Shown here: in pieces, positions 2,795 to 16,291 of the stretch
Layout: each line of letters begins with the position of its first letter
Position numbering within the stretch: the first letter of the stretch is position 1
Assembly (NCBI GenBank): GCA_965263455.1
Contig: CBDHHN010000001.1
Span: 355,492 to 419,491, forward strand
Length of the DNA: 64,000 bases
From: Acidimicrobiales bacterium
GTDB lineage: Bacteria > Actinomycetota > Acidimicrobiia > Acidimicrobiales > SZUA-35
Direction: 5' to 3'
The notes under the pieces: generated by a model
Seen by the model: only the letters and a program-made list of their open reading frames with translations
The model's database searches: none
What the model was told of the DNA's origin: nothing
Position numbers and translations under genes: made by a program

Positions 2795-2902
2795 ATCTTG
2801 CTTGTTTGAGCTTGCGGTCGAATGCCGGTCAGTAAGGTTTCGAACTGGAGGACCCCAGTGCGGCGGTGCGGGTCCGTGCGGGTGACGACAACGTCGGAGG
2901 CG
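2795..2902 (+). promoter_or_regulatory. Candidate promoter / 5' leader of the plus-strand glycan operon
   Basis: 198-nt gap with a locally AT-richer patch (cttgcttgtttgagcttgcggtcgaatgccggtcagtaaggtttcg) containing TTGnnn and TAAGGT hexamers. Three GTGCGG direct repeats (2858, 2866, 2876). GGAGG RBS at 2896-2900. No canonical -35/-10 spacing could be fixed. Confidence 0.25.
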
Positions 2903-3940
2903 ATGATGCGAGTAGCCGTGGTCGGAATCGGCTATTGGGGTTCGAAGCACGTGCGCGTGTTTCACAGTGTTGAGGAGGTCGGCCAGGTCATTGCCGTTGA
3001 CGGTGATGCCGGACGCCGGGCCGCCATCGAGGGGGCGTTCCCCCGGGTGAAGACGGCGGCCCGCTTGGAGGACGTGCTCCACGAGTGCGACGCCGTGGTT
3101 GTGGCCACCCCACCTACCAGCCATGTGGACCTGGCCCTGACCGCCATCGAGGCGGGCAAGCACGTGCTGGTCGAGAAGCCTCTGGCCACCAACTCGGCCG
3201 ACGCCCACCGGCTGGTCGTGGCGGCAGACCGCCGAGGCGTGAACCTCATGGTCGGTCACACCTTCGAGTACAACGCCGCCGTGGTCCATCTCCGCCAGGT
3301 CGTCCAGAACGGCGACCTCGGCGTGGTCCACTACATCGATTCGGCCCGGCTCAACCTGGGGCTGTACCAGCCGGACGTGAACGTCCTGTGGGACCTGGCC
3401 CCGCACGACATCTCGATCTGCAACTACGTCCTGGACGACACCCCGACCTCGGTCAGCGCCTGGGGCTCGGCCCACGCCAACGGCCGTTTCGAGGACGTGG
3501 CCGCCCTGCGGCTGCACTACGGGTCGAGCGGGGTCACGGCCAATATCCGGGTCAGCTGGCTCGATCCCAACAAGGTCCGGACCACGACCGTGGTCGGGAG
3601 CCGCCGGATGGCGGTCTACAACGACCTGAACGACAACGAGCGGATCAAGATCTACGACCGGGGCGTGGCCGTCGAGCAGACCGACGACCAGCACAACGTG
3701 CCCATGAGCTACCGCTACGGCGACATCGTGGCTCCCCATGTCGACTTCCCGGAGCCGCTCCTGGTCGAGGCCCGGGACTTCATCCAGAGCTCGATCGAGG
3801 GGCGCAAGCCCCGGGCCAGCGGTGAGAAGGGCTTGGCCGTGGTCGAGACCCTGGAGGCCGCCGACCTGGCCCTGACCGAGGTCAGCCAGGTCCCGGTCGG
3901 CCAGCCGCGGATGGCGGCGATCGCCGTCGCCGGCAACTGA
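2903..3940 (+). CDS. Gfo/Idh/MocA-family NAD-dependent sugar-nucleotide oxidoreductase (WbpB/WlbA/GnnA-like 3-dehydrogenase class)
   Basis: ATG 2903 preceded by GGAGG. Rossmann N-terminus MRVAVVGIGYWG, LVEKPLA motif, WDLAPHDISI. Sits in an operon with a DegT aminotransferase. ORF-track start 2822 considered less likely. Confidence 0.8.
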   Translation: MMRVAVVGIGYWGSKHVRVFHSVEEVGQVIAVDGDAGRRAAIEGAFPRVKTAARLEDVLHECDAVVVATPPTSHVDLALTAIEAGKHVLVEKPLATNSADAHRLVVAADRRGVNLMVGHTFEYNAAVVHLRQVVQNGDLGVVHYIDSARLNLGLYQPDVNVLWDLAPHDISICNYVLDDTPTSVSAWGSAHANGRFEDVAALRLHYGSSGVTANIRVSWLDPNKVRTTTVVGSRRMAVYNDLNDNERIKIYDRGVAVEQTDDQHNVPMSYRYGDIVAPHVDFPEPLLVEARDFIQSSIEGRKPRASGEKGLAVVETLEAADLALTEVSQVPVGQPRMAAIAVAGN

Positions 3941-3958
3941 TCACCGGACGGGCGACCG

Positions 3959-4591
3959 GTGTTGCGCATCCCGACCCTGCTGTTGAAGCGGGCCATGGAC
4001 ATCCTCCTGGCCCTGCTCCTCCTCCTGGCCTTGTCGCCCCTGCTGGCGGTCACGGCCCTGGCCGTCCGGCTCACGAGCCGGGGCCCCATCATCTTCCGTC
4101 AGACCCGGATCGGCCGGCACGGCGAGCCGTTCGAGCTGCTGAAGTTCCGCAGCATGGTGACCGGCAACTCCGACGCCGCCGTGCGCGAACTCAACACCCG
4201 TGAGCTGACCGGCGAGGACGTCAGCGCCCCCGACGGGGTCCACAAGCTGGCGGCCGATCCCCGGATCACGCCGGTCGGGGCCGTCATCCGGCGGTTCTCG
4301 ATCGACGAACTGCCCCAGCTGTGGAACGTGGTGCGGGGCGACATGTCGATCGTGGGTCCCCGGCCCTCGCTGGACTGGGAGGTGGCCCTGTTCGACCAGG
4401 CCCACCGGGTCCGCGAATCGGTTCGACCCGGGCTGACCGGGCTGTGGCAGGTCAGCGGACGCAACCGGCTCAGCATGCGTCAGATGCTCGACCTCGACGT
4501 CGAGTACGTGCAGTCGCTGTCGCTGGTGCGGGACCTTCGAATCCTGGCCCGGACTCCGGCGGCGGTGTTGTCGGGCGAGGGCGCACGGTGA
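3959..4591 (+). CDS. Small (PglC-type) phosphoglycosyl transferase, bacterial sugar transferase family (initiating enzyme on undecaprenyl phosphate)
   Basis: GTG 3959. One N-terminal hydrophobic helix (ILLALLLLLALSPLLAVTALAV). Then GPIIFRQTRIG, FELLKFRSM, DPRITPVG, IDELPQLWNVVRGDMSIVGPRP. Confidence 0.85.
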   Translation: MLRIPTLLLKRAMDILLALLLLLALSPLLAVTALAVRLTSRGPIIFRQTRIGRHGEPFELLKFRSMVTGNSDAAVRELNTRELTGEDVSAPDGVHKLAADPRITPVGAVIRRFSIDELPQLWNVVRGDMSIVGPRPSLDWEVALFDQAHRVRESVRPGLTGLWQVSGRNRLSMRQMLDLDVEYVQSLSLVRDLRILARTPAAVLSGEGAR

Positions 4592-5649
4592 CGGCGCCTG
4601 CCCCCACCGTGCCCGCCATCGTCGACCCGACCGGCCCCGGCCCGTGGGCCGACCTCGTCGACCGGGCCGGTGGCTCGCTGTTCACCTCCCCGCCCTGGCT
4701 GCGGGCCATCGCCACCACCTACCCCCATCTGCGGCTCCAGGCCCACGTCGTGAGCGACCCCTCGGGCCTACCGGAGGTGGGCGCGGTGTCCGGCGTCATC
4801 GACGACGTGCTCGGACCTCGACTGGTGAGCACCCCCTACTGCGACTTCTGCGATCCGGTGGCCGTGGACGGCGCCACCGAACTCGACCGGGTCGTCGATG
4901 CCCTGCTTGCCTTCGACGGTCCGGTCCGGCTCCGGGTGCTCGAACCGCCGCCCGGCCTCGACGATGGCCGCCTGACCGAGACCGGTCACGACTTCTGGCA
5001 CGGCGTGGGCCTCGATCGCGAGGTCGACGAGATGGAGCAGTCCCTGGGCTCGACCGCCCGCCGCAACGTGCGCAAGGCCCGCTCGGCCGGGGTGACGGTG
5101 CGCTTCGCCTCCGACCTGGCGGCCGTCGACACGTTCTTCGGGCTGCACCAACTGACCCGCCGGGCCAAGCACGGCATGCTGGCCCAGCCGCGACCCTTCT
5201 TCCACGCCATCCACGAGGAGTTCGGTCCCCACGACGGGGTCCACGTGGCCCTGGCCGAAGCCGAAGGGCGGGCCGTGGCCGGGATCTTCCTCCTGGAGTG
5301 GGGCGGACGGGCCTACTACAAGTTCAACGCCTCGGATCCGGCCGATCTGGCCCTCCGGCCCAACGATCTCCTGATGTGGGAGTCGATGCAGTGGGCTCAG
5401 AGCCGGGGCAACCAGCTGCTCGACCTCGGCCTGAGCGACGCCGACCAGCCCGGGCTCCTCCGCTACAAGCGCAAGTTCGCCACAGCCGAGGGCCGGGTCC
5501 GGACCTTGGTGGCCGGCCCGGGTCCAACGGCCGGCGCCCAGGAGTTGCGGCCGGTGTTGGGCCAGCTCACCGACCTGTTGTGTGACGAGCGGGTCCCGCT
5601 CGACGTGGCCGAGCGGGCCGGCAACCTGCTCTACCGATACTTCACCTGA
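4588..5649 (+). CDS. FemAB-like / CelD-BioF2-like GNAT acyltransferase (Acetyltransf_6-type)
   Basis: GTG 4588 overlaps the upstream stop (GTGA). 353 aa. C-terminal half RRNVRKARSAG...GIFLLEWGGRAYYKFNASD...LLRYKRKF resembles the FemAB-like GNAT family seen in exopolysaccharide loci. ORF-track start 4321 rejected (lies inside the PGT gene). Confidence 0.65.
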   Translation: MTAPAPTVPAIVDPTGPGPWADLVDRAGGSLFTSPPWLRAIATTYPHLRLQAHVVSDPSGLPEVGAVSGVIDDVLGPRLVSTPYCDFCDPVAVDGATELDRVVDALLAFDGPVRLRVLEPPPGLDDGRLTETGHDFWHGVGLDREVDEMEQSLGSTARRNVRKARSAGVTVRFASDLAAVDTFFGLHQLTRRAKHGMLAQPRPFFHAIHEEFGPHDGVHVALAEAEGRAVAGIFLLEWGGRAYYKFNASDPADLALRPNDLLMWESMQWAQSRGNQLLDLGLSDADQPGLLRYKRKFATAEGRVRTLVAGPGPTAGAQELRPVLGQLTDLLCDERVPLDVAERAGNLLYRYFT

Positions 5650-5725
5650 GACTTCGATCGACCCAGACCGTTCCCGCCGACGCCCTCCGCCGCCGGCGCC
5701 TCTTCCTCCCGGAGGTTTCTTCGAC

Positions 5726-6847
5726 ATGATCCCCGTTCCCTTCCTCGACCTGGGCGCGCTCCACCGCGACCTCGGTTCCGAGCTCGACGCCTGCTGGCGG
5801 GCCGCCGTCGACAACAACCGGTTCGTCGGCGGCCCCGACGTCGAATCGTTCGAGACGGCCTGGGCCGCCTACTGCGATCGCCGCTACGCCATCGGCACCG
5901 CCAACGGAACCGACGCCATCGAGCTGGTCCTGCGGGGCCTCGGGCTGGGGCCGGGCGACGAGGTCGTCGTGCCGACCAACACGTTCATCGCCACCTGTGA
6001 GGCGGTGACCGCCGTCGGGGCCAGCCCGGTCTTCGCCGACGTCGACGAAGCCACCCTGCTCATGACCCGGGACACGGTGGAGCCGGTCCTCACCGACGCC
6101 ACCGCCGCCATCATCGTCGTCCACCTGTTCGGCCACCCGGTCGACATGGATCAGATGACGGACCTGGCCTCGAGTCGGGGCCTGGCCCTGGTCGAGGACG
6201 CGGCGCAGGCCCACGGCGCCACCTGGCGTGGCCGCAAGATCGGTTCCTTCGGCGCCGCCTCGACCTTCAGCTTCTACCCGGGCAAGAACCTGGGCGCGCT
6301 CGGCGACGGCGGGGCCGTGGTCACCGACGACGCCGACCTGGCCGAACGGGTGCGGTGCCTGGCCAACCACGGCCGCTCCCCCCACTCCCACACCGAACAC
6401 ATGCTCGACGGCTGCAACAGCCGACTCGACGCCCTCCAGGCCGCCGTGCTCGAGGTCAAGCTCGGGGCGCTGGACGGCTGGAACGAGCGTCGCCGGGAGG
6501 CGGCCCGCCGCTACCGGGAACTGCTCGATCCGTCGCTGTGGCTGCTGCCGGTCCGCGATGGTGCGGTGGCCTCCCACCACCTGGAGATCACCCGGGTCCC
6601 CGACCGGGACCGGATCCGCAAGATCCTGGGCGAGGCCGGTATCGGCACCGGGGTCCACTACCCGGTCCCCTGCCACCGCCAGCCCCCGTTCGCCCCCTTC
6701 GCCCGTGGCCCCTTGCCGGTGGCCGAGACGGCGGCGTCCGAGATCCTGTCGCTTCCCATGTTCCCCCACATGACCGACGAGCACCTGCAGGCGGTGGCCG
6801 ACACCCTGCACGGCGCCCTCGACCTGGAGGTCGGCCCCCGCCCATGA
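5726..6847 (+). CDS. DegT/DnrJ/EryC1/StrS-family PLP-dependent sugar aminotransferase
   Basis: ATG 5726 preceded by GGAGG (5711-5715). Motifs GTANGTDAIELVL, EDAAQAHGA, SFYPGKNLGALGDGG (PLP-Lys), CNSRLDALQAAVL. Confidence 0.85.
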   Translation: MIPVPFLDLGALHRDLGSELDACWRAAVDNNRFVGGPDVESFETAWAAYCDRRYAIGTANGTDAIELVLRGLGLGPGDEVVVPTNTFIATCEAVTAVGASPVFADVDEATLLMTRDTVEPVLTDATAAIIVVHLFGHPVDMDQMTDLASSRGLALVEDAAQAHGATWRGRKIGSFGAASTFSFYPGKNLGALGDGGAVVTDDADLAERVRCLANHGRSPHSHTEHMLDGCNSRLDALQAAVLEVKLGALDGWNERRREAARRYRELLDPSLWLLPVRDGAVASHHLEITRVPDRDRIRKILGEAGIGTGVHYPVPCHRQPPFAPFARGPLPVAETAASEILSLPMFPHMTDEHLQAVADTLHGALDLEVGPRP

Positions 6848-8307
6848 TCCGGGTTCCCACCGGCCGGGATCCGGATCCGAGTCGAACCCGGTTCCCGGTG
6901 GCGGCCGCCGCCATGGCCCTGGGCCTGGCCGTGGCCGCCTGTGGCTCGGGTGACAGCGCCGCCGACGACGGGGCCGGGCCGACACCGGTCGCCGCCACCG
7001 TCACGGTTCCCGCCGTCGAGGTGCCGACCCTCATCATCGAGTCGACGGAGGTCGACCCCCGGACGCTGGTGGCCCCCGGCGTCGTCGTCGACGCACCGAC
7101 CGGCCCGTGTACGGCGACCGTGGCCGACGTCGACGACGTCGACCGCGTCCTGGTCGGGGCTCGGCCCGGCTCGGTGCTGTGCCTGGACGGCTCCCATCCG
7201 GGCAAGGTCCTGCGGATCGACCGCTCGGGCCGCCCGGGGGCACCCCTGGTGGTGGCCGGGCCCGGGGTCGAGGTCGGCGCCATCGAGATCGAGGCCGATC
7301 ACGTCACCGTGGTCGGCCTCGTCGTCACCGGCGCCGACGACGGGTCCCACCGTCCCGGCGTGCGGATCACGGGCCGCAACGTGGTGGTGGACGAACTGGC
7401 CGTGCTCGAACCCGGGGGCGACGGCATCGTGTGCGGCTCCAACGACGACGTCTGCGAGGAGGTCACCATCGCCGACAGCCTGATCTCGGGGGTCGACGGC
7501 ACCGGCGTGATGGTCTTCGGGTCCGAGGCGGTGGTGACCGGCAACGAGATCACGGGCTCCCGCCGGGTGGCGGCCAGTGACGCCGACGGCGTCCGGTTCT
7601 TCGGCTCCCGCCATCGGATCGTGGGCAACCTGATCCACACCATCCACGACCGGGGCTACCCCGGCGAGGGTCCCCACACCGACTGCTTCCAGACCTTCGA
7701 CAACTCGAAGCCGCCCACCGTCGACGTGATCATCGAGGGCAACGTGTGCGTCGACGTCGACCACCAATGCCTCATCGCCTCGGCCGAGGAGTCGGCCGGA
7801 GCAGGCGCCATCGGCCGCTCGGGTGGCCTGGTGTTCCGCAACAACGTGTGCGCCAGCAACGGCAGCCAGGCCGTGTTCCTCCGAGAGTTCCCCCGCAGCG
7901 TCATCGCCAACAACCTGTTCGTCGACACCAACGAGTTCCAGACGCTGGCCCTCGAGATGTTCTCGTCGGACCTGCGGGTGGTCAACAACATCTTCCTGGG
8001 CGACGTCGAGCCCTACCTGGTCGACGAGGGCTCGATCATCGGGACCGTCATCGACCACAACCTCCACCGGGTCGGTGGCTCGACCGTGATCGACGAACCC
8101 AACGCCATCACCGGCGTCGATCCCGGGTTCAGCTTCGGCTCGACCGTGCCCCTTCGCCCGGCGGCCGACTCCCCCCTCGTCGACGCCGGACTCGATCCCG
8201 GGGACGGAGCGCTGGGCCTCACCGACCTCGCCGGCCAGGCTCGATCGGTCGACGGTGACGGCGACGCCGGGCCCCGACCCGACATCGGCCCCGTCGAGCG
8301 CCCCTGA
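6844..8307 (+). CDS. Lipoprotein with right-handed parallel beta-helix domain (glycan-processing enzyme candidate: lyase/hydrolase/epimerase-like)
   Basis: ATG 6844 overlaps the upstream stop (ATGA). Lipobox LAVAAC followed by GSG. Periodic turns VTGNEITGS, IVGNLIH, IEGNVCV, FRNNVCA, IANNLFV, VVNNIFL. C-terminal DLAGQAR...DIGPVE. Paralog of 13928-16291. Confidence 0.7.
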   Translation: MIRVPTGRDPDPSRTRFPVAAAAMALGLAVAACGSGDSAADDGAGPTPVAATVTVPAVEVPTLIIESTEVDPRTLVAPGVVVDAPTGPCTATVADVDDVDRVLVGARPGSVLCLDGSHPGKVLRIDRSGRPGAPLVVAGPGVEVGAIEIEADHVTVVGLVVTGADDGSHRPGVRITGRNVVVDELAVLEPGGDGIVCGSNDDVCEEVTIADSLISGVDGTGVMVFGSEAVVTGNEITGSRRVAASDADGVRFFGSRHRIVGNLIHTIHDRGYPGEGPHTDCFQTFDNSKPPTVDVIIEGNVCVDVDHQCLIASAEESAGAGAIGRSGGLVFRNNVCASNGSQAVFLREFPRSVIANNLFVDTNEFQTLALEMFSSDLRVVNNIFLGDVEPYLVDEGSIIGTVIDHNLHRVGGSTVIDEPNAITGVDPGFSFGSTVPLRPAADSPLVDAGLDPGDGALGLTDLAGQARSVDGDGDAGPRPDIGPVERP

Positions 8308-8345
8308 CCGACGCCCCCAGGGTCGGGAGCGCCAGGGCGACCACG

Positions 8346-8369
8346 GAACCCGCCGGGCCGGTGGCGTTC
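8346..8369. terminator. Candidate hairpin between the convergent glycan operons
   Basis: gaacccgccgggccggtggcgttc can fold as GAAC/GTTC plus CCGCC/GGTGG with one bulge. It lies in the 72-nt gap between the stops at 8307 (+) and 8380 (-). No U-tract. Confidence 0.25.
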
Positions 8370-8379
8370 AGGCCCCGGC

Positions 8380-9339
8380 TCAGGCCTTGACCGAGACCTC
8401 GATGGCGGGTGGCGTGTCGGCCGTCCGGGCCGCCATGGTGGCCGCCGTCCGCACGTCGTCCCAGGTCAGGTCGTCCACGCCCCGGTGGAGGCCCAGGCCC
8501 CGGTCCTGGAGCAGGTCGGCCAGCTGGTCCTGGTGGTCGTCGCCGATCTCGCCCTCGGCCTCCCGTCGGGGCACCAGGATGGGGGCCCGCCCGGCATCGA
8601 GGGCGGCCAGGGCCGAGCCGCAACCGGCGTGGGCGACCACCACGTCGGCCTCGGCCTGGAGACGCCCCAGCTCGGCCGCCGGCATGAAGTCGTGGACCCG
8701 GCCCGGGAGGCCTTCGCCCCGGGAGGCCCCGATCTGCCACACGAAGTCGGTCTCCGGCGGGGCGATCTCGGCCAGACGGCGCAGCAATCGATCGAAGGGC
8801 CAGTCGGTCGAACCGACGGTCACCACCACCTTGAGCCCGGCGTCGACCGTCGACGACCGCGGTCGGATCGGGGCCGGCTCGTAGCCGTCGAACACCGACC
8901 CGGCGTAGCGCCAGGGTCCGCGGGCGTTGCCCGGATACTGGGTGAAGACCCGGACCCGGGGCCAGCGGGAGAGGATGTGTCCGGTGCGGGACGGGCCGCC
9001 GGAGCGGGCCGCGCTCTCCACGTAGTAGGCGGGCACGCCCCGGAGGGCGGCGTAGCCCAGGTACCCGACGGCGATGGCCGATCCGGTCGACACCAGGGCC
9101 GTCGGCTCGAACCGGCGCAGGAGATCGTTGGCGTGGCGCAGGCTCCGAGCCACGCCGACCACGTCGCGCTCCTCGATGTAGGGGACCCACTCCACCTGGC
9201 GCTCGGCCAGCAGTGACTCGGACTGGGGTGAGCGGTGGGTGACCCACACCTGGTCGTCGCCGACCACGTCGAGCCGCTGCGACAGGGCCACCAACTGGGT
9301 CAGGTGACCGCCGGTGGTGGCCACCAACACGGCCGTCAC
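8380..9339 (-). CDS. Glycosyltransferase, fused Alg14-like (N) and Alg13/GT28 C-terminal-like (C) domains
   Basis: GTG 9339 overlaps the stop of the upstream fusion gene (GTGA). 319 aa. N-half VLVATTGGHLTQL...STGSAIAVGY...YYVESAAR (Alg14-like). C-half VVVTVGST...FDRLL...VVAHAGCGSALAALDAGRAPILVPR (GT28_C/Alg13-like). The rest of the 1350-aa track ORF is out-of-frame shadow. Confidence 0.75.
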   Translation of the reverse strand: MTAVLVATTGGHLTQLVALSQRLDVVGDDQVWVTHRSPQSESLLAERQVEWVPYIEERDVVGVARSLRHANDLLRRFEPTALVSTGSAIAVGYLGYAALRGVPAYYVESAARSGGPSRTGHILSRWPRVRVFTQYPGNARGPWRYAGSVFDGYEPAPIRPRSSTVDAGLKVVVTVGSTDWPFDRLLRRLAEIAPPETDFVWQIGASRGEGLPGRVHDFMPAAELGRLQAEADVVVAHAGCGSALAALDAGRAPILVPRREAEGEIGDDHQDQLADLLQDRGLGLHRGVDDLTWDDVRTAATMAARTADTPPAIEVSVKA

Positions 9340-12300
9340 CCGCCGACCCCCACGGGTGTCCGGAGGGGTGCCGAGGGCTCGGACACCAGAGCGCCTGGCC
9401 GGGTCCTCGGGGACTCGGGTCGAGGCTCGACCTCGGGTTCGGGATCCGGGCCCGCCGGTCTCGACAGGCCGATCAGGGTGAGGGGAAGCAGGATCATGAA
9501 CAGGTCGCCGGCTCCGCGGAGCTGGATGTGCTTGTCCAGCAGGGTCATGGCCAGGAGGCAGGCCAGGGCGGCCACCGCCGTGGCCCCGGTGGTGGTGGCC
9601 ATCGGGTGCGGTCGGGTCCGGCGGGCCGACAGGGCCGAGCGGAAGGCCTCGACGACCAGCCACACGAAGGCGAGGAAGAAGGGGATGCCACCAACCCAGA
9701 ACAGCCAGAGGTAGCCGCTCTCGAGGAAGATCTCCTCCCGCCACTGCTCGGGTGCCTGCAGAACCGAGTTGGGTCGGACACCGAGGATCCACTGCTGCCC
9801 GTCGAGCAGTGGTGGCAGGTAGAACGTGGTCAGGTTGTCGATCCGGCCGATCCAACTCCGCGGCAGGCCGAAGGGTCCGGCGAACTCCGACAGGCGGCCG
9901 GCCAGGACGGGGAAGGCGGCCAGGACCACCACGGGGGTGACGGGAAGCGCCAGGCGCATGAGGGGCCACAGCCGTCCGACCTGCCAGGCCGCCACCGGGC
10001 CGGCGATGAGGACGGCCAACCAGCTGGAGAACTGGCCAGAGGCCATGGCGCCCAGGAACAGGAGCACGGCGAGGGGGCCCAGGTAGGCGGGGGCGGGCGG
10101 GAAGCGGGACGAGTCCCCGGTGCCGGCCGTCGACAGTTCCGGAGTCCGCGGTCGAGCCCCCCACCAGGCCACGGCCAGGGCCAGGCTGTAGGCCAGGTAC
10201 CCGCCGGTGGCCAGCGACGAGGCCAGGGTGGCCGAGGCCCGTCCGGTGTTGAGCACGTCGGCCGGGCCCCAGAAGGTCAACAGCAACGGCTCGCCGCCGA
10301 CCGCGGCCAGCAGGCCGGTCCCCTGGACCACGGCCACCACGGCCACCAGCCCGGCGGCCAGGAGGGAGATGGTGATGACCCGCTGGATCTGCTCGGCGGT
10401 GGTGATGGTGACCCGGACCATACCGTAGATCATCAACAGCCGGACCAGGACCACCGGTTCGAGCAGATCGCCCGACTCGGGGCTCATACCCCGGGCCAGC
10501 AGCCACAGGATCGGGTAGGCGGTGCCGAGACCGGTGAAGGTGATGAGGGCCAGGTCGAGCCGGTTGGGGCGGAAGGTGAGCGGCCGTCCCAGGAGTACCT
10601 CCCACATGCCCCGGGCCATCAGGATGCCGACCAGGCCGGCCAGGACGGCCTCGTTGGGCCGGGCCTGGGGCACGAGGGCCCCGCGCTCCATGCCCGCCAG
10701 GAAGGGGACGGAGGCCACGTAGAGGTAGGTGGCCAGGGCCGGGGTGCGCCACACCAGCACGAACACCACGAGGGCCACGATGCCCAACGGAACCAGCCAC
10801 CCGACCACGACGACCATGGCGTTGAGCACGACCAGCAGTCCCAGCCCGGCCACGACCATCGCGTCGTCGGGGGCCAAGCGGGGCCGCAGGGCCCGAGCCG
10901 GGCGGGCCACGGTCTCGATCACCCGGCGGAAGGCGGCCGAGTACCGGTACTGGAGGACGCCGTACAGGGCCAGGCCGGTCGAGCCGCCGACGGCCAGCAG
11001 GGGCAGGGCAGGGACGGAGATGGTGGCCTCGACCGCCCGGGTCCACAGCCCGGTCAGGCCGATGGCCACGACGGTGATGGCGGCCGTTCGGGCCGAGGTG
11101 GTGGCCAGCAGCCACCCGGATCGGATCGAGCGGAGGGCCCGACGCTGGATGATGACGCCGGCGACGAGGGTCCCGAGGGTGCTGGCCGAACCCAGGGCGG
11201 CCAGCATGGCGACCGGCTCGTCGATGGTGATGGCCAGGCCCGAACCGACCAGGACCACGCCGACCTGGATCCAGGAGGCCACGGCCGGGGTGGTGTAGTC
11301 GCCGTCGGCGAACAGCACGACGCGGCCGACCTCGGCCAAGGTGATGCCGAGCACCGACAGCGCCAGGGCCACCAGGCTGACCTCGACCAGGGCGACCGCC
11401 CCCTCGCTCGACATACGGCCGACGGAGATGACGGCGGCGATCGAGGGGGCCAGGGCCACCAGGCCGGCAGCGGCCGGCAGCGCCGTGAGCCCGACCAGCC
11501 ACACCCCCTCGCGGTAGGCGGTGAGGAATCCGAGATGATCGTTCATGGCCCGCCGAAGGCTGAGCCGGGGCAGCAGTGCGACCGTGACCGGGCGGGCCCC
11601 CAGCGCCACCGGCAACTGGGTCATCTGGGCCGCCAGCTGGACGGCGATGACGCCGCCGGGCACGAGGTTGGCGGCCAGGATGAGCACGAAGTAGGCCAGG
11701 GCCTGGGCCACGGCGTTGGCCACCGCCGGGCCGCTGCGACGGACGAGGGCCCGAAGTTCCGGGTGGTCCCACTGCATCTGGGGCCGCAGCACGACCCCGG
11801 CCCGGGCCGCTCCCCACCATTGGAGCACGGCATGGGTGACCACGGCGGCCGTGTTGCCCAGGCCGAGCAGCGTGAGCTGGGCCGTTGTGACGTTGTCGAT
11901 GTCGACCAGACCGCCTCCCATGGCGGCGAAGAGCACGACGGAGGCGATGGCGACCAGGTTCTCGACGGCCGGGGCGGCGGCGGCCAGGCCGAACCGCTGG
12001 CGGGCGTTCTGGACCGCCATACCCACGCTGGCCAGGCCGTAGCAGGCGATCTGGGGTACGACCAGGACCAGCAGGTAGGCGACGGCCCGCCTGGTCTCGG
12101 GTCCGACGTCGTCGCCGGCGCCGACGCTGAGGAGCCGGGCGATCAGCGGGGTGGCCAGCAACAGGACGAGGCCGACGGCGGCCGATACGGCCAGCATGAC
12201 CCCGAGGAACGAGTTGGCCAGCCGGGCCGCGCTGCGGGTGTCGCCCCGTTCCAGGTGACCGACGACGGCCGGCACCACCAGGGACACGATCAGGGACCCG

Positions 12301-12518
12301 GCGAGCAGGTTGTAGGCGATGTTGGGGAGGACCGTCGTCGATTGGTAGACGTTGGACAGGATCGTTGGGCCGAGCACGGCGCCGGCGGCGGCGATGCGGA
12401 CGAACCCGGTGATCCGGCTGACCAGGGTCCACAGCATGACGACCGAGGCGTCGCCGCTCAGTCGCCTGTCATCGTCGCTCGCCTGCTCGGCGGCCGGAGC
12501 CTCGGCGGCCTCCGTCAT
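9336..12518 (-). CDS. Fusion protein: MurJ/MviN-type (MOP superfamily) flippase domain (aa ~1-545) plus O-antigen polymerase/ligase-like (Wzy_C-type) polytopic membrane domain (aa ~560-1020)
   Basis: Single uninterrupted 1060-codon frame. ATG 12518 overlaps the upstream stop (ATGA). N-half SRITGFVRIAAAGAVLG, LPNIAYNLLAGSL and many TM segments typical of MurJ. C-half has about 10 more hydrophobic segments and NTGRASATLASSLATGGYLAYSL (nt ~10190-10250), resembling the Wzy_C Arg-containing loop motif. Confidence 0.75.
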   Translation of the reverse strand: MTEAAEAPAAEQASDDDRRLSGDASVVMLWTLVSRITGFVRIAAAGAVLGPTILSNVYQSTTVLPNIAYNLLAGSLIVSLVVPAVVGHLERGDTRSAARLANSFLGVMLAVSAAVGLVLLLATPLIARLLSVGAGDDVGPETRRAVAYLLVLVVPQIACYGLASVGMAVQNARQRFGLAAAAPAVENLVAIASVVLFAAMGGGLVDIDNVTTAQLTLLGLGNTAAVVTHAVLQWWGAARAGVVLRPQMQWDHPELRALVRRSGPAVANAVAQALAYFVLILAANLVPGGVIAVQLAAQMTQLPVALGARPVTVALLPRLSLRRAMNDHLGFLTAYREGVWLVGLTALPAAAGLVALAPSIAAVISVGRMSSEGAVALVEVSLVALALSVLGITLAEVGRVVLFADGDYTTPAVASWIQVGVVLVGSGLAITIDEPVAMLAALGSASTLGTLVAGVIIQRRALRSIRSGWLLATTSARTAAITVVAIGLTGLWTRAVEATISVPALPLLAVGGSTGLALYGVLQYRYSAAFRRVIETVARPARALRPRLAPDDAMVVAGLGLLVVLNAMVVVVGWLVPLGIVALVVFVLVWRTPALATYLYVASVPFLAGMERGALVPQARPNEAVLAGLVGILMARGMWEVLLGRPLTFRPNRLDLALITFTGLGTAYPILWLLARGMSPESGDLLEPVVLVRLLMIYGMVRVTITTAEQIQRVITISLLAAGLVAVVAVVQGTGLLAAVGGEPLLLTFWGPADVLNTGRASATLASSLATGGYLAYSLALAVAWWGARPRTPELSTAGTGDSSRFPPAPAYLGPLAVLLFLGAMASGQFSSWLAVLIAGPVAAWQVGRLWPLMRLALPVTPVVVLAAFPVLAGRLSEFAGPFGLPRSWIGRIDNLTTFYLPPLLDGQQWILGVRPNSVLQAPEQWREEIFLESGYLWLFWVGGIPFFLAFVWLVVEAFRSALSARRTRPHPMATTTGATAVAALACLLAMTLLDKHIQLRGAGDLFMILLPLTLIGLSRPAGPDPEPEVEPRPESPRTRPGALVSEPSAPLRTPVGVGG

Positions 12519-13768
12519 CGGAGTCGGGGGTTCCTCCGCTCCAGTCCGAAGACGACGCCGGCGCCGACCATCCCGCCCAGCAAGGCGCCGAGGGCGGCCA
12601 ACTGGAGCCGGTTCGGGGCGAGCAGGCCGTCGAGCACGAAGGCCGGCGTCAGCACCACGAACCGGGGCTTGATCAGGTCGTTGAGCTCCTGGTCGTCACG
12701 CCGCTGCTCCAGGTCGGCGATGCGGGACCGGACCGTCTGCAGATCCCCCAGCAGCACGGCCACCTCGGCGTCGCCGACGTCGAGCCGGGTCTGATCGCCG
12801 AGCACCGGGGCCTGCCCTCCGACCAGGTTGGCGATACGCGCCTCGAGGTCGGCCTCCTGCTGTTCCAGGTCGGTCAGCTCGTCGGCGATGAGGGCCAGGG
12901 CCTGGGCGCTCGAGTCGGCCTGCTCCAGTTGATCGAAGTAGACGCCGACGACGGCGTCGAGCCGATCCAGAGCCTCCTGACCGCTCGACCCCTCGGCCGT
13001 GATCTGGATGATCTCGCTTCCGTCGATGACGCTGGCGTCGATGGCGGCCGACAGGTCCTCGACGTCGATGCCGAGCTGGGCCGCGGCCGGGGTCAGCACG
13101 GCCCGACTCTCGATGGTGACGACCTGGGTCGTCAGCCGGCGGTCCTCGCGCAGGAACCCGGCCTGGAGGTTGGCGTCAAGCTCGAAGAGGATGTCGGTCC
13201 GGGCGCCGTAGACCGGGGGTTGCGTGAAGGAGAAGATGAGGGCCAGCAGGACCGAACCGGCGACGAGACCGGCCATGACCAGGCTGTAGAAGGCGAGGGC
13301 CTGGATCTTGAGGCCGGGCACCGCCTCGGTGAGCCGACCGAGCTCGCTCCGGGTCCGCTCGGCCGGGACCTTGATCGCCTCCATCCGCCCGGTGGGGTGG
13401 GCCTCGGTGGGCACCACGTCGTGCTCCCCCGACAACGGGGCCACGGTACGGGAGCGGGAACCGGGCTCGGGACCCGAACCGGTCCGGCCCCGAACCCACG
13501 ACTGGCTCGACCGCGAGCTCGCGGAGGCCGCGCCGGCCGAGGACGACGGTGTCGAGGTGGGGTTGGGCACCGGAGGGGCGGAACTCACCACCGGACCGGC
13601 CGACGTGGCGACGGTCGACGGCGAGGCCGCGCTCTGGTGGAGCCGGTTGGTGATCTCCTCGACGTCAGGTGCACCACCTGCGGTCTTGGCGGACGGGGTC
13701 GACCCAGAGCCGTCCCCGTCGGACGGAGAGGTCCCGTTGCTGTCGGTGTCCACGGCACCACTACGCAT
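12515..13768 (-). CDS. Wzz-like polysaccharide co-polymerase (chain-length determinant, PCP family), no kinase domain
   Basis: Two TM segments (ALAFYSLVMAGLVAGSVLLALIF near the N-terminus, LAALGALLGGMVGAGVVFGL at the C-terminus) flank a coiled-coil-rich region (LTDLEQQEADLEARIANL...). Ser/Pro/Thr-rich N-terminus. ATG 13768 preferred; an upstream TTG at 13819 is also possible. Confidence 0.7.
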   Translation of the reverse strand: MRSGAVDTDSNGTSPSDGDGSGSTPSAKTAGGAPDVEEITNRLHQSAASPSTVATSAGPVVSSAPPVPNPTSTPSSSAGAASASSRSSQSWVRGRTGSGPEPGSRSRTVAPLSGEHDVVPTEAHPTGRMEAIKVPAERTRSELGRLTEAVPGLKIQALAFYSLVMAGLVAGSVLLALIFSFTQPPVYGARTDILFELDANLQAGFLREDRRLTTQVVTIESRAVLTPAAAQLGIDVEDLSAAIDASVIDGSEIIQITAEGSSGQEALDRLDAVVGVYFDQLEQADSSAQALALIADELTDLEQQEADLEARIANLVGGQAPVLGDQTRLDVGDAEVAVLLGDLQTVRSRIADLEQRRDDQELNDLIKPRFVVLTPAFVLDGLLAPNRLQLAALGALLGGMVGAGVVFGLERRNPRLR

Positions 13769-13927
13769 TTCAACACCCACCCTGGTTGACCGGCCGCGCC
13801 TCGGTGCCGACCACCACAATCTTCGTCAACCATGGAGTGTAGGCCCCAGGCGATGAGGCCACCGAGCAAGCGTCCGGGGCGAATCGACTCACCGGCGGGA
13901 GGGTCCCACGAACCAGTGTCGGGGCCG

Positions 13928-16291
13928 TCACCCCAGCTCGTAGGGGCCGATGTCGATGCTGCCCTGGATCCTGGTTCGACCGGCGAGGTCCAGGCTGTGG
14001 GGTCGGGCCGCCGTGGTGCCCCGATCGACCACGTCGACCCGGTCGGCCTGCTGGGCGAACTGGGTGAAGTCGCTCTCGGTGATGGCCGGGAATGCTGCAC
14101 CCCGGCCACTGCCGGGGAAGTCGGCGGACCGGTTGATGCGACTGGGTCCGGTCAGCACGTGGTTGCCTTCGACGACGGTGCCGTCGCCGTTGCGTTCGCC
14201 GTAGAGGACGGCGACGTTGTCCCGCGCCCGTTGGATGATGTTGTTGCGGATGACGACCCCGGAGTTGCGCTTGGCCCCGTTGGCGCCGCTGAGCGAGAGG
14301 GCCAGCACCTGGTAGGTGGGATCGCCGCCCAGATAGTTGTTCTCGATGAACACGTCGACCACGCCCTGGAGGTTGACGACCTGGCTGTCGTAGGTCTCGC
14401 ACACGTTGTTGCGGAAGGTGATGTTGCGGACCAGCACCGCGTCGGTGTGGGCGTTGGACATGATCAGGCATTGGCGCCCGATGCGGACGCAGTAGTTGTT
14501 CTCGATGGTCACGTCGGCGGTGACGATGGGGTTCCGGTTGGGGTTGTACGACTCGAAGATGGTGTAGGTCTGCCAGCAGTCGACGTGGGGGGTGTCGCCT
14601 CCGCTGGTGACGCTGGCGAACTCGTCGATGTCGTGGAAGTAGTTCTCCCGGATGAGGTGGCCGCGCCCGAAGAAGCGCATGGCGTCCACGTCGTAGCCGC
14701 CGCTGGTGCGGGCCAGACCCCACACGTTGTTCCGCTCGACCCGATTGCCGGATCCGTAGATGATGATGCCGATGCTCTCGATGCCGGTCACCGAGTTGTG
14801 GCTGAAGACGGTGTCGGCGCAATCGGTGCGCGATCCGCACACGATCCCGTTGCGGGTGGGCGCGGCGTCGACGAGCACGTTGTGGACGACGTTGCCGGTG
14901 CCGGTGACCTCGACGGCGGCGCCCCGGCCGGACAGGTCCGACGCCCCCGTCACCCGGAGGCCGTCGATGGTGACCCGGTCGGCTTCGACGACGACGGCGC
15001 CGACCTCCACCCGTCCGGCGGCCTTCACGGTGCGGTCGGAGGACGTGACCTGCAACAGGTGGCCGCCGTGGTCGCCGGCCTGGAGGCAGACGACGGCACC
15101 GGCGGGGGCGGCGTCGATCTGGGCCGAGAGATCGCCGCCGGCCACAGTCACCGTGCAGTCGTCGAGCGAGGTGCTGCCCTCACCGCTGCTGCCGTAGCGG
15201 GGCAGTCCGGGGGCCGACCCCGAGGGCGGAGTCGACGGCGGTGCGGGCGGCGACGGAGCCGGATCGGGGGCGGTCGAGGTGGAAGGGGCCGTCGTCGGAG
15301 GAGGCGTCGTGGGGGCGGTGGGTTGGCCGGCGCCGCCGGGGACGACCGGGGTGGAGCCTCCGGTCGGGGCCGGGCTCGACGGGCTCGGAGTCGCGGTCGG
15401 CGTCGGGGTCGGCGCGGGAGTGGACGAAGGACTCGACGAAGGGCTCGAGGAAGGATTCGAGGAAGGGTTCGAGGTCGGCGGCGCTGCACGGCCGGCACCG
15501 TCGGGGGGCGAGCCCGCTGGTCCCGATGGAGCACCCGCCGTCGACTCCGGGGTCCCGACGGGATCGGGCGCCTCCGCCTGGTTCGCCGTCGCGTCGGCCG
15601 GGACCGAGACCGAGGAGCCGGTCGAGGATGTGGTGGAGGGGTCGAGTGGTGGGTCGGTTGACGATCCGTCCAACGTGGTGGTCGTGCCCGAGGCGGGGTC
15701 GCTCGACGCCGAGTCCTCGGGCCCCACGCTCTCGTCGACCAGGGCGCTCGGGTCGAAGCCGTCCGCCTCGGCGCCATCGGCCGCGGCCGACTCCGGCTCG
15801 GCCAGATCGGCGGGCGGGATCGGCGGGTCCAGGGCGGTCGTGGTCGAGGTCTGGTCCGCCACCAGGTCCACCTCACCCGATGACGGCGCGAGCACGGCTC
15901 CCAACAGGGAGACGGAGGCGGCGATGGCCACCCACAGCGCCACCGACCGGGTTCGCCGGGGGCCCAGGGTGGGCCCGGTCCGGCGGGCACCCCCGATCAC
16001 GGGTGCGGTCTCGGGCGAGGCCGGCCCCGACGACGGGTCCACGGCCGGTGCTGCGAGGGACGGCTCCGCCGGAGCCTCCGTTCCCGTGCCGGGATCGCCA
16101 TCGATCTCGCCACGCCGAGGGGACGGCGAGGCCGGGGTCGACGCCGAGGCCGAGGTCGGGGCAGGGGTCGAGGCCGGGTCGACCGAGCGTGACAGGCGGA
16201 GCCGGTCATCGTCGGGGGCCGTCAACGGAGCGGTAGGGCGCGGGGATTGGTTCGAAGCCATCATCACCTGAATTGCCCCGCCGGTGAGCAT
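13928..16291 (-). CDS. Membrane-anchored (type II) protein with long Ser/Thr/Pro/Asp-rich stalk and C-terminal right-handed beta-helix domain; paralog of 6844-8307
   Basis: ATG 16291 (alternative ATGs at 16264/16261). TM segment VALWVAIAASVSLLGAVLAP. About 260 aa of low complexity. Beta-helix turns (VERNNVW, IRENYFH, IENNYCV, FRNNVCE, IENNYLG, IRNNIIQ). Shared motifs with the paralog: HVDCWQT vs HTDCFQT, and C-terminal DLAGRTR...DIGPYE vs DLAGQAR...DIGPVE. Confidence 0.7.
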   Translation of the reverse strand: MLTGGAIQVMMASNQSPRPTAPLTAPDDDRLRLSRSVDPASTPAPTSASASTPASPSPRRGEIDGDPGTGTEAPAEPSLAAPAVDPSSGPASPETAPVIGGARRTGPTLGPRRTRSVALWVAIAASVSLLGAVLAPSSGEVDLVADQTSTTTALDPPIPPADLAEPESAAADGAEADGFDPSALVDESVGPEDSASSDPASGTTTTLDGSSTDPPLDPSTTSSTGSSVSVPADATANQAEAPDPVGTPESTAGAPSGPAGSPPDGAGRAAPPTSNPSSNPSSSPSSSPSSTPAPTPTPTATPSPSSPAPTGGSTPVVPGGAGQPTAPTTPPPTTAPSTSTAPDPAPSPPAPPSTPPSGSAPGLPRYGSSGEGSTSLDDCTVTVAGGDLSAQIDAAPAGAVVCLQAGDHGGHLLQVTSSDRTVKAAGRVEVGAVVVEADRVTIDGLRVTGASDLSGRGAAVEVTGTGNVVHNVLVDAAPTRNGIVCGSRTDCADTVFSHNSVTGIESIGIIIYGSGNRVERNNVWGLARTSGGYDVDAMRFFGRGHLIRENYFHDIDEFASVTSGGDTPHVDCWQTYTIFESYNPNRNPIVTADVTIENNYCVRIGRQCLIMSNAHTDAVLVRNITFRNNVCETYDSQVVNLQGVVDVFIENNYLGGDPTYQVLALSLSGANGAKRNSGVVIRNNIIQRARDNVAVLYGERNGDGTVVEGNHVLTGPSRINRSADFPGSGRGAAFPAITESDFTQFAQQADRVDVVDRGTTAARPHSLDLAGRTRIQGSIDIGPYELG
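15424..15471. repeat. Imperfect 12-nt tandem repeat x4 inside the stalk-coding region
   Basis: gacgaaggactc / gacgaagggctc / gaggaaggattc / gaggaagggttc. Encodes SNPS/SSPS units on the minus strand. Confidence 0.7.

Follow-up and report, generated by a model that had tools for sequence, protein, structure and literature searches.

The window analyzed here, a 64,000-nucleotide stretch of a contig assigned to the Acidimicrobiales, encodes on the minus strand a protein of 1060 residues (9336..12518, ATG start, from the ORF list) in which a MurJ-type flippase domain is followed by a second polytopic domain, referred to as X. In public annotation this protein is named "MurJ" only. The gene lies between two others on the same strand, and the overlaps that join it to them, ATGA with the upstream gene (12515-12518) and GTGA with the downstream gene (9336-9339), were confirmed by direct reading; both neighbors count as translationally coupled to it.

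The upstream gene (12515..13819, minus strand) encodes a Wzz-like polysaccharide co-polymerase (PCP) with two TM helices around a coiled-coil domain and, ahead of TM2, a Pro-rich motif; its N-terminal ~150 residues are of low complexity and its start codon is uncertain. The Pfam Wzz model matched this protein below threshold (E 0.0079) and also recognized 14 of 17 of its orthologs (best 2e-5), and the family profile matched Wzc structures with an E-value of 1.8e-4. The position of this gene directly upstream of MurJ is conserved in ~60 loci. Directly downstream of the fusion, a GT28_C / PssD+PssE / WelK-like glycosyltransferase (GT; 8380..9339, minus strand) was recognized by PF04101 (E 2.5e-5) and by the NCBIfam models WelK (7.7e-26), PssE (2.2e-19) and PssD (7e-12), and is syntenic in the locus of the closest relative (L001).

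On the plus strand, a GFO/IDH/MocA oxidoreductase (2822..3940; PF01408 1.3e-25), nearest to UDP-GlcNAc 3-dehydrogenase (NF040723 1.8e-49, under the cut-off), is followed by a small phosphoglycosyl transferase (PGT, Bac_transf), the initiating enzyme (3959..4591; PF02397 1.5e-62, TIGR03025 3.7e-81), a FemAB-like / Acetyltransf_6 acyl- or aminoacyl-transferase (4600..5649, approximate start; PF13480 4e-23, PF02388 1.6e-10) with weak matches to the NCBIfam models pepcterm_femAB and FemX, and a DegT/DnrJ/EryC1 sugar aminotransferase that belongs to the conserved cassette described below (5582..6847; PF01041 4.8e-109). A convergent gene for a beta-helix protein (6862..8307, plus strand, approximate start; PF13229 2.9e-10) has an ortholog that adjoins the fusion in L001 and a paralog in the window (phmmer 1e-38), at 13928..16291 (minus strand). 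According to its translation, the latter is membrane-anchored or secreted and combines a Pro/Ser/Thr-rich linker with a right-handed beta-helix domain; it has a weak NosD-family match and is a candidate glycan-processing enzyme. In agreement with the initial annotation, the fusion sits in a Wzx/Wzy-type polysaccharide locus, in which X is the sole polymerase candidate.

Integrity and spread of the fusion

The 1060-aa ORF is a genuine single actinobacterial membrane protein. The GC contents of its three codon positions are 0.73, 0.51 and 0.93, and every 100-codon window has a GC3 of 0.89-0.97, those over the MurJ/X junction (aa 500-600) included, with 0.95-0.96 at the junction itself. The two other long ORFs on the same DNA (8380..12432, minus strand; 9528..12794, plus strand) are without this signature across the region which, together with the steady GC3 of the fusion ORF, rules out a hidden frame change. 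Thus, the single unbroken frame read at first, 9336-12518, holds from end to end. The same in-frame fusion occurs in two relatives with 52-57% identity (P0026 and P0027) and in more distant ones with 31-38% identity, evidencing that the fused architecture is not a one-off error. A full-length AF2 model of the fusion reached a pLDDT of 81.8 and a pTM of 0.72.

The two domains are connected by an Arg-rich cytoplasmic linker helix (10872..10940, minus strand; aa 527-549) with 6 K/R in 22 residues, which holds an in-frame GTG plus a TGA in the +1 frame ('GGTGA'); across fused homologs the linker measures 20 to 100 aa. In the predicted topology TM14 of MurJ ends in the cytoplasm (C-terminus in), where TM1 of X starts (N-terminus in), making both topologies compatible.

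MurJ and X are fused in ~25 of the 126 full-length representative clusters (~20%). Fused and unfused forms intermingle on a rough NJ tree, so that some of the metagenomic "fusions" could be frameshift artefacts; the clade of the window is uniformly fused. It could be argued that the fusion itself is artefactual, or accidental and without function, a frameshift error or a recent mutation having merged overlapping genes. In favor of this, MurJ and X are in most species two genes that overlap in different frames, and hence one indel would fuse them, the GGTGA motif resembles a relic, and the fused forms are scattered on the tree. This explanation is considered very improbable in view of the GC3 over the junction, the number of fused clusters, the fit between both cytoplasmic termini and the short in-frame linker common to three independent sequences at 52-57% identity, with ~15 distant ones also fused.

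Among representatives, the fusion partners of X were MurJ (29), the initiating PGT (11) and Wzz plus AAA_31, a kinase-like ATPase (2), a set that points to one shared pathway. The initial regard of the fusion as an uncharacterized novelty holds in part: neither a characterized flippase::polymerase fusion of this kind nor a natural Wzx-Wzy fusion was found in the literature, but the architecture is a recurrent one.

The MurJ-type half and the X domain

The N-terminal domain (10941..12449, minus strand; aa ~24-526) is, by Pfam and Foldseek, a 14-TM MurJ/MviN flippase, in agreement with what had been read from the first half of the protein. PF03023 matched aa 48-494 with an E-value of 2.5e-44 and 152 bits against a cut-off of 27.4; the TIGR01695 score (161 bits) lies under the equivalog cut-off of 235, so that this half is a paralog and not the housekeeping MurJ. 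Foldseek TM-scores were 0.82-0.87 to the MurJ structures 7waw, 7wax and 6nc6 (E ~1e-11) and poorer, 0.75, to WzxE, and R35 and R41 of the fusion are the conserved equivalents of R18 and R24 of Escherichia coli MurJ. Both sequence and modeled fold thus place this half in the MurJ family. Its next-best sequence matches are the mycobacterial MviN/MurJ proteins (~1200 aa; ~31% identity, E ~1e-20), likewise actinobacterial and extended at the C-terminus. In these proteins the extension is a soluble pseudokinase-type region, whereas in the fusion it is a predicted 14-TM GT-C_B-like domain that gave no match to kinase models in the Pfam search.

The X domain (9480..10871, minus strand; aa 550-1013), a putative repeat-unit polymerase with ~14 TM helices and a predicted WaaL/SEDS (GT-C_B) fold, represents an unannotated family of 1098 representative clusters at 50% identity. 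Searches of X against Pfam and NCBIfam produced zero matches, and the PF04932 (Wzy_C) search that had been proposed for the C-terminal half returned nothing even at E<=10. Comparison of the X profile with a WaaL alignment was insignificant (hhalign Prob 0.8%), and a WaaL HMM run over 171 X-family members gave E 0.24 at best; sequence comparison therefore does not place X in Wzy_C, nor did it connect X significantly to any characterized Wzy, WaaL or SEDS family. Wzy_C was the sole recurrent weak Pfam match within the family (seen in 2 of 25 members and in 3 of 70, at best 3e-4). Consequently, of the initial description of this half, its polytopic nature stood, whereas its Wzy_C membership was not borne out by sequence. 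The Arg motif noted at first, NTGRASATLASSLATGGYLAYSL (10182..10250, minus strand; aa 757-779), does contain a near-invariant residue of the family, R760, on the outer loop predicted to follow TM7 of X, but the equivalence of this 'NTGRAS' Arg to that of Wzy_C is unproven.

The AF2 model of X (pLDDT 79.5, pTM 0.80) retrieved WaaL first (7tpg), then RodA (8tj3 and 6pl6) and FtsW (8p1u) with probabilities of 0.99-1.0, at modest TM-scores (0.43-0.55), E-values of only 1e-3 and 14-16% identity; all other matches remained below 0.45 and no Wzy structures were among them. These best and only confident matches, WaaL (CAZy GT121; PDB 7TPG) and SEDS RodA/FtsW (GT119), belong to the GT-C_B class, or clan GT-C1 (PMC10920833). 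The residues invariant in the X family, R620, E623, R875, W889, R892, E933, D995, H997, and R1001, map to predicted outer loops, the charged ones all included, and a long outer loop is found toward the C-terminus, an arrangement also reported for GT-C polymerases and ligases of the sugar-diphospholipid type (PMC10920833). Conserved outer-face residues and the long late loop are common to X, WaaL and SEDS proteins, whereas X has ~14 helices compared to 12 in WaaL and 10 in SEDS, and no residue-level equivalence of the catalytic Arg, His or Asp is established. At the level of the fold, the model and the Foldseek search support the early assignment of X to the structural superfamily of O-antigen ligase and Wzy/SEDS polymerases. 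The Pro/Glu-rich C-terminal tail (9339..9479, minus strand; aa 1014-1060) is predicted to be disordered (pLDDT <50) and is unconserved among homologs.

As WaaL, the best structural match, is a ligase, a role of X as a WaaL/PglL-like ligase or oligosaccharyltransferase, passing the flipped glycan directly to a lipid, protein or cell wall acceptor, is an unlikely alternative reading. The invariant H997 and the outer-loop Arg residues recall the Arg/Arg/His set of WaaL, and the cassette has one GT plus the PGT only, suggesting a short repeat unit. However, SEDS polymerases match X nearly as well as WaaL, the cassette has no second polymerase candidate, the conserved gene directly upstream encodes a Wzz-like co-polymerase and X is sometimes itself fused to Wzz+AAA_31; Wzz and AAA_31-type proteins are partners of polymerases.

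Conserved cassette and proposed pathway

The cassette GFO>DegT>PCP>MurJ>X>PGT>FemAB-like>GT28 recurs in ~50 actinobacterial species genomes, and MurJ lies immediately upstream of X, as a separate adjacent gene, in ~65 of 72 assessable loci (species genomes). One cultured carrier is Saccharopolyspora spinosa (locus L021). In a second cassette type the MurJ::X fusion is located between a PGT and an AAA_31 PCP-like gene. We propose, with a probability of around 60%, that the product of this gene is a hard-wired flippase::polymerase serving a Wzx/Wzy-type route to a surface polysaccharide. The dehydrogenase and the aminotransferase would produce an amino sugar that the small PGT puts onto undecaprenyl phosphate, a second sugar would be added by the GT28-like enzyme, and the FemAB-like enzyme may perform an N-acylation. 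The Und-PP-linked unit would then be flipped by the MurJ-type domain and possibly handed over directly to the X domain, a presumed divergent representative of the WaaL/SEDS/Wzy (GT-C_B) fold class, which would act as a polymerase rather than a ligase, joining units at the outer face by means of its invariant Arg and acid/His residues, with chain length set by the upstream Wzz-like co-polymerase.

Several of these components also recall a parallel 'lipid II-like' route in which the cassette makes a peptidoglycan-like aminoacylated strand and X is a SEDS-type strand polymerase: the flippase is of MurJ and not of Wzx type, GT28_C (MurG-like) and FemAB-like enzymes are present, X matches RodA and FtsW with probabilities of 0.99-1.0, and the GFO and DegT enzymes could yield a 3-amino sugar with a possible N-linked acyl or aminoacyl group. 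Nevertheless, this route appears distinctly improbable, as initiation relies on a Bac_transf PGT instead of MraY, the GT is nearest to the EPS enzymes PssD/PssE/WelK, the FemAB-like matches are weak and equally fit PEP-CTERM EPS systems, and the annotated part of the window (~1-28 kb), like the listed genes of the related loci examined, contains neither Mur ligases nor a class B PBP. In addition, a Wzz-like PCP, present here, is not a feature of peptidoglycan synthesis.

A MurJ/MviN flippase acting in a Wzx/Wzy-like glycopolymer pathway, instead of or besides lipid II, has a parallel in the Firmicute Clostridioides difficile, whose PSII cell-wall glycopolymer locus encodes the MviN flippase CD2781 and, unlike the fusion, a separate polymerase, CD2777 (PMC5065235); that locus also has LCP ligases, none of which was seen in the cassette. 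With the Wzx/Wzy pathways of O-antigen, ECA (WzxE/WzyE/WzzE) and pneumococcal capsule the cassette shares its parts list, namely a PGT for initiation, one or more cytoplasmic GTs, a flippase of the MOP superfamily, a polytopic enzyme of the outer face in which Arg and acidic residues are conserved, and a coiled-coil PCP that has two TM helices. It differs from them in that the flippase is a 14-TM MurJ-family protein compared to the 12 TM of Wzx, the polymerase candidate is without detectable Wzy_C or other Pfam membership, and both are one polypeptide. A complex between WzyE and WzzE has been documented (PMC10030265). As most relatives encode MurJ and X in two neighboring genes, the natural fusion would constitute evidence for the physical coupling of flipping and polymerization in surface polysaccharide synthesis.

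Coding frame and flippase half of the fusion protein

The G+C content of the window is about 71%, and long spurious ORFs are therefore abundant; between 8.4 and 12.8 kb the ORF listing holds three mutually overlapping frames, each of more than 1000 aa. The minus-strand frame 9336-12518, encoding a 1060-aa protein with a MurJ-type N-terminal half and a polytopic C-terminal domain here called X (aa 550-1013), was singled out among these by its codon-position composition (GC1/2/3 = 0.73/0.51/0.93), the two competing long ORFs having a third-position GC of only 0.61 and 0.75. GC3 is 0.89-0.97 in each 100-codon window, the putative junction included (0.96 at aa 500-600), and the 1060-aa frame is therefore coding over its full length. 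The single uninterrupted frame claimed in the initial annotation is thus borne out, and the two operon overlaps that it described were read directly in the sequence: the upstream stop overlaps the ATG of the fusion (cgATGAcg, 12515-12518) and the stop of the fusion overlaps the downstream GTG (gGTGAcg, 9336-9339). With a coding signal that runs across the junction, and a fused architecture conserved in homologues at 52-57% and at 31-38% identity, it is highly improbable that the fusion is artefactual or accidental.

The assignment of the first half to the 14-TM MurJ/MviN flippases was supported by both profile and fold. PF03023 (MurJ) is the single Pfam match of the protein (aa 48-494, E 2.5e-44, 152 bits vs a cut-off of 27.4), covering model positions 4-438 of 451. 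In Foldseek searches with an AlphaFold2 model of the full-length protein built on 20 fused homologues (pLDDT 81.8, pTM 0.72), the MurJ structures 7waw, 7wax and 6nc6 were matched with TM(target) 0.82-0.87 over ~515 columns (E ~1e-11); since these scores are clearly above those of WzxE (TM 0.75, E 4e-5) and of MATE transporters (0.7), the modelled N-terminal half is of the 14-helix MurJ type (12 MOP helices plus TM13-14). The cavity arginines R18 and R24 of Escherichia coli MurJ are conserved and correspond in the alignment to R35 and R41 of the fusion; in the MurJ alignment S17-R18 and G21 are invariant and R24 nearly so, and the equivalents of R52 and R270 are missing in the fusion as well as in mycobacterial MurJ. 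The match to NCBIfam TIGR01695 (aa 24-522) reaches 161.5 bits, below the equivalog cut-off of 235.55, so that judged by sequence this half is a MurJ-family paralogue and not demonstrably the housekeeping lipid II flippase; its gene lies in a polysaccharide cassette rather than at a cell-wall locus.

With a pTM of 0.72 over 1060 residues, the two domains seem to be arranged in a defined way relative to each other. As the Arg-rich linker (6 K/R in 22 residues) would lie in the cytoplasm, where both MurJ TM14 ends and X begins, the fusion appears topologically sound in the model. At 10917-10921 of the minus strand (aa R531-I534) the linker contains GGTGA, in which an in-frame GTG and a TGA of the +1 frame repeat the stop/start overlap seen at the 3' end of the gene. 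The motif may have survived from an ancestral overlap of a MurJ stop with an X start, may serve as an internal start from which X is made separately, or may be there by chance; it is not kept in P0026 or P0027, two fused relatives at 52-57% identity.

Sequence searches and predicted fold of domain X

The C-terminal half had been read initially as a Wzy/O-antigen-ligase-like domain, and its presence as a demonstrable Wzy_C domain was not confirmed: PF04932 had no match in the full protein (E<=1) or in aa 538-1060 (E<=10), and neither scan returned a Pfam or NCBIfam match of any kind for this half. A profile of X and 24 homologues gave 0 matches against PDB sequences, the hhalign comparison of a 70-sequence X alignment with a 20-sequence enterobacterial WaaL alignment was insignificant (Prob 0.8%), and a WaaL HMM run against 171 X-family sequences produced only noise, with nothing better than E 0.24. 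On the last two results, both the membership of X in Wzy_C by sequence and the equivalence of its R760 to the WaaL Arg were dropped. A weak hint comes from Wzy_C being the only Pfam family matched recurrently by X relatives, namely by 5 of the 95 scanned (2/25, best 3.1e-4; 3/70, best 1.6e-3).

What holds of the earlier description is a second polytopic domain, which has ~14 TM helices in the AF2 model. Mycobacterial MviN, by comparison, carries a C-terminal kinase-like soluble domain, whereas this half is polytopic and without a kinase-family match in the Pfam scans, and a pseudokinase-type MviN extension was rejected.

The AF2 model of X (pLDDT 79.5, pTM 0.80) has the O-antigen ligase WaaL (7tpg_B) as its best Foldseek match in the PDB (E 1e-3, prob 1.00, TM 0.55), followed by the SEDS peptidoglycan polymerases RodA (8tj3_B, 6pl6_A) and FtsW (8p1u_A) with prob 0.99-1.00 and TM 0.43-0.47; all remaining matches have prob <0.45. 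On this model, and with modest scores, X has the GT-C_B fold class (SEDS/WaaL/Wzy; CAZy clan GT-C1). [quoted passage not shown]

A topology in which the AF2 helices were oriented by the positive-inside rule predicts about 14 TM helices, N-in and C-in, with 18 K/R in 115 inner loop residues vs 10 in 126 outer ones; in it, the outer loop that joins TM11 to TM12 has 58 residues. The residues R620/E623, R676, R760, R875, W889/R892/N895, E933 and D995/H997/R1001 are invariant or near-invariant in the X family, and all of these charged positions lie in predicted outer loops or where the bordering helices end on the outer side. Regarding the Arg-containing motif first quoted as a Wzy_C signature (aa 757-779; nt 10182-10250, minus strand of the fusion ORF), R760 is indeed nearly invariant and falls in a predicted outer loop, but is at most a putative counterpart of the Wzy_C Arg.

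Among viral predicted structures, Foldseek returned one uncharacterised protein as the sole one resembling X, BFVD A0A3G2KG04 of Arthrobacter phage Faja (434 aa; prob 1.0, TM 0.42), suggesting from the models that this actinophage may carry a gene for a membrane protein of the polymerase/ligase fold.

The X family, its fusions and the conserved cassette

An exhaustive profile search placed 1098 representative clusters (50% identity) in the X family at E<=1e-3 and 307 at E<=1e-30; the stand-alone members have about 450-520 aa and none is annotated. This search thus uncovered about 1,100 representative clusters of a family with a predicted polymerase/ligase fold for which neither Pfam nor NCBIfam has a model. 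A full X domain is present in 126 of the best 150 representatives, 81 of them stand-alone, 25 with at least 450 residues N-terminal to X, 9 with shorter N-terminal extensions and 11 with at least 180 residues C-terminal to it. The fusion is therefore not unique, and the first reading stands in that no characterised example was found in the open-access literature. In a Pfam scan of 53 multi-domain members, MurJ was found in 29, Bac_transf in 11, Polysacc_synt_3 in 3 and Wzz + AAA_31 in 2.

A word-indexed search with the full protein identified about 18 clear full-length fused homologues (31-57% identity) in Acidimicrobiales, Pseudonocardiales and 'Mycobacterium sp.' MAGs, with in-frame linkers of 20 to 100 aa. 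When named at all, these are just MurJ or 'putative lipid II flippase', and the public label 'lipid II flippase MurJ' misstates their likely role. In other lineages X is fused at its C-terminus to a Bac_transf phosphoglycosyl transferase (PGT), as in the related loci L003/L052 (10001-12109) and L078 (6075-9992) and in 11 family representatives, and in two representatives it is fused to Wzz + AAA_31; judging from sequence, these are alternative 'Rosetta-stone' fusions within one pathway. A rough NJ/Fitch analysis of fusion origins gave 21 changes and was abandoned as a means of telling recurrent fusion from tree error, being too noisy for sequences at 30-40% identity.

At the window locus, the fusion gene is preceded directly by a Wzz-like gene (12515-13819, minus strand; PCP) and followed directly by a GT28_C/PssDE/WelK-like glycosyltransferase gene (8380-9339, minus strand), the first gene of this minus-strand operon encoding a beta-helix protein (13928-16291). 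The adjacent plus-strand genes encode a GFO/IDH/MocA oxidoreductase, a small PGT (3959-4591), a FemAB/Acetyltransf_6 protein, a DegT aminotransferase and a second beta-helix protein. The oxidoreductase is nearest to UDP-GlcNAc 3-dehydrogenase, which at the sequence level suggests a 3-amino sugar, N-acylated or aminoacylated. Directly upstream of these sugar-modification genes lie the 3' end of an NRPS-like gene (18-1400, plus strand; AMP-binding_C, PP-binding, thioesterase) and an ORF (~1400-2704, plus strand) whose translation reads like a class-III aminotransferase, as judged by reading and not by a family-library scan. The beta-helix proteins flanking the operon (13928-16291, minus strand; 6862-8307, plus strand) are right-handed and paralogous, one of them having an N-terminal membrane anchor followed by a ~250-aa Pro/Ser/Thr-rich linker, and probably process the glycan product as hydrolases, lyases or epimerases.

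The window Wzz-like protein matches PF02706 below threshold (E 0.0079, 16.9 bits vs a cut-off of 25.5); Pfam Wzz is matched by 14 of 17 orthologues (best 2e-5), and the family profile matches Wzc structures (E 1.8e-4). The architecture is that of two TM helices around a coiled coil, with a Pro-rich motif before TM2 that is P-x2-P-x4-(S/F)P(K/Q)P-like in the alignment. From the annotated TTG start, the N-terminal ~150 aa are of low complexity, Ser/Pro/Gly-rich and lacking in most orthologues, and by this comparison the true start may be further downstream.

When one genome was scanned for each GTDB species, 80 loci were obtained, mostly from Pseudonocardiaceae or Pseudonocardiales, the others from Saccharopolyspora (S. 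spinosa NRRL 18395 included), Actinomycetospora, two Streptomyces, a Mycolicibacterium and Acidimicrobiia, with a few from non-actinobacterial MAGs. The loci were compared by searching their six-frame ORFs with the window's proteins, which revealed the order GFO>DegT>PCP>MurJ>X>PGT>FemAB-like>GT28 in about 50 of them and defined a conserved, uncharacterised actinobacterial glycan cassette that is found in cultured strains such as S. spinosa. Immediately upstream of X, about 65 of the 72 assessable loci have a separate MurJ ORF that overlaps it in another frame; MurJ and X are fused in one assessable locus, and X and PGT in two. The scan did not recover the window's own organism, and as its degenerate patterns also missed the 'WIESGYTWLLWGGG' fused subfamily, it gives no fusion frequency, which was taken from the representative search. 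An identical PCP / fusion / GT28 / beta-helix arrangement is found in the closest relative, on the 6.3-Mb chromosome of an Acidimicrobiales MAG. A second, more distant fused subfamily lies in a different cassette, with GFO, DegT, (Hexapep), PGT, MurJ::X and an AAA_31 PCP-like gene, then GT4s.

Proposed function and relation to known systems

A PGT, a GT28-like enzyme, a MOP flippase, a polytopic putative polymerase and a Wzz-like protein are all encoded at the window locus, and the same Wzx/Wzy-type gene set is syntenic in about 50 genomes. Within the stretch annotated around the locus (about 1-28 kb of the window), no other polytopic polymerase candidate was found; the ORF at 1400-2704, checked as such, reads as an aminotransferase instead. 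Since the cassette otherwise holds every part of a Wzx/Wzy-type pathway and X, its only polytopic outer-face candidate, has a predicted ligase/polymerase fold, adjoins the flippase and the PCP and is fused, depending on the lineage, to a flippase, an initiating transferase or a co-polymerase, the most economical reading (probability about 0.6) is that X is the repeat-unit polymerase and the window gene a flippase::polymerase fusion. The earlier interpretation was right in kind as to the ligase/polymerase fold and the Wzx/Wzy-type locus, but not as to a demonstrable Wzy_C domain. That X acts instead as a WaaL/PglL-like ligase agrees with WaaL being the top structural match and with a short repeat unit, but the PCP conserved in the cassette makes this unlikely.

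The cassette (window 2822-9339; loci L007-L085) parallels lipid II synthesis, with the PGT where MraY stands, a GT28/MurG-like glycosyltransferase, a FemAB/FemX-like transferase, a MurJ-like flippase and a SEDS/WaaL-fold enzyme. The MurJ, GT28 and FemAB parallels would fit X as the SEDS analogue of a peptidoglycan-like pathway; however, the initiating enzyme is a Bac_transf PGT, the glycosyltransferase is of EPS type, a PCP is present and Mur ligases and PBPs are absent among the annotated genes, so that this pathway is quite improbable. In a more far-reaching reading, the lateral gate of MurJ would hand Und-PP-linked units directly to the active site of X, in a functional single-chain 'flip-and-polymerise' machine. 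This proposal, that such a machine, a previously unrecognised GT-C_B polymerase family and a peptidoglycan-pathway-like cassette together make an N-acyl-/aminoacyl-amino-sugar polymer in Actinomycetota, is tentative and rather doubtful as a whole.

Physical coupling of Wzx-type flippases and Wzy polymerases has long been proposed on mostly genetic evidence, and work on Wzy enzymes is notoriously difficult. WzyE and WzzE have been shown to form a complex (PMC10030265), Wzy, WaaL and SEDS are recognised as one structural superfamily in which more polymerase families are expected (PMC12004945; PMC10920833), and MurJ/MviN-family flippases are known to serve non-peptidoglycan glycopolymer loci, one example being Clostridioides difficile PSII, where, unlike in MurJ::X, the predicted polymerase is separate (PMC5065235). 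Searches of open-access full texts found neither a natural flippase-polymerase fusion nor this cassette described. MurJ::X is a natural, recurrent and putative single-chain flippase::polymerase; the occurrence of the same two genes as separate ORFs in close relatives, and of X fused elsewhere to PGT or PCP, provides 'Rosetta-stone' evidence for a complex. For cryo-EM and for assays in vitro the fusion offers a stable construct with the two parts at 1:1 and, if the flip-and-polymerise reading is true, the first natural one for the structural study of flippase-polymerase coupling.

Another fused gene was observed at 25623-28205 (minus strand), where an 860-aa product joins an N-terminal flavin (Baeyer-Villiger-type) monooxygenase domain (aa 12-216) to a C-terminal Abhydrolase_3 esterase domain (aa 628-831), a possible oxidise-then-hydrolyse fusion.
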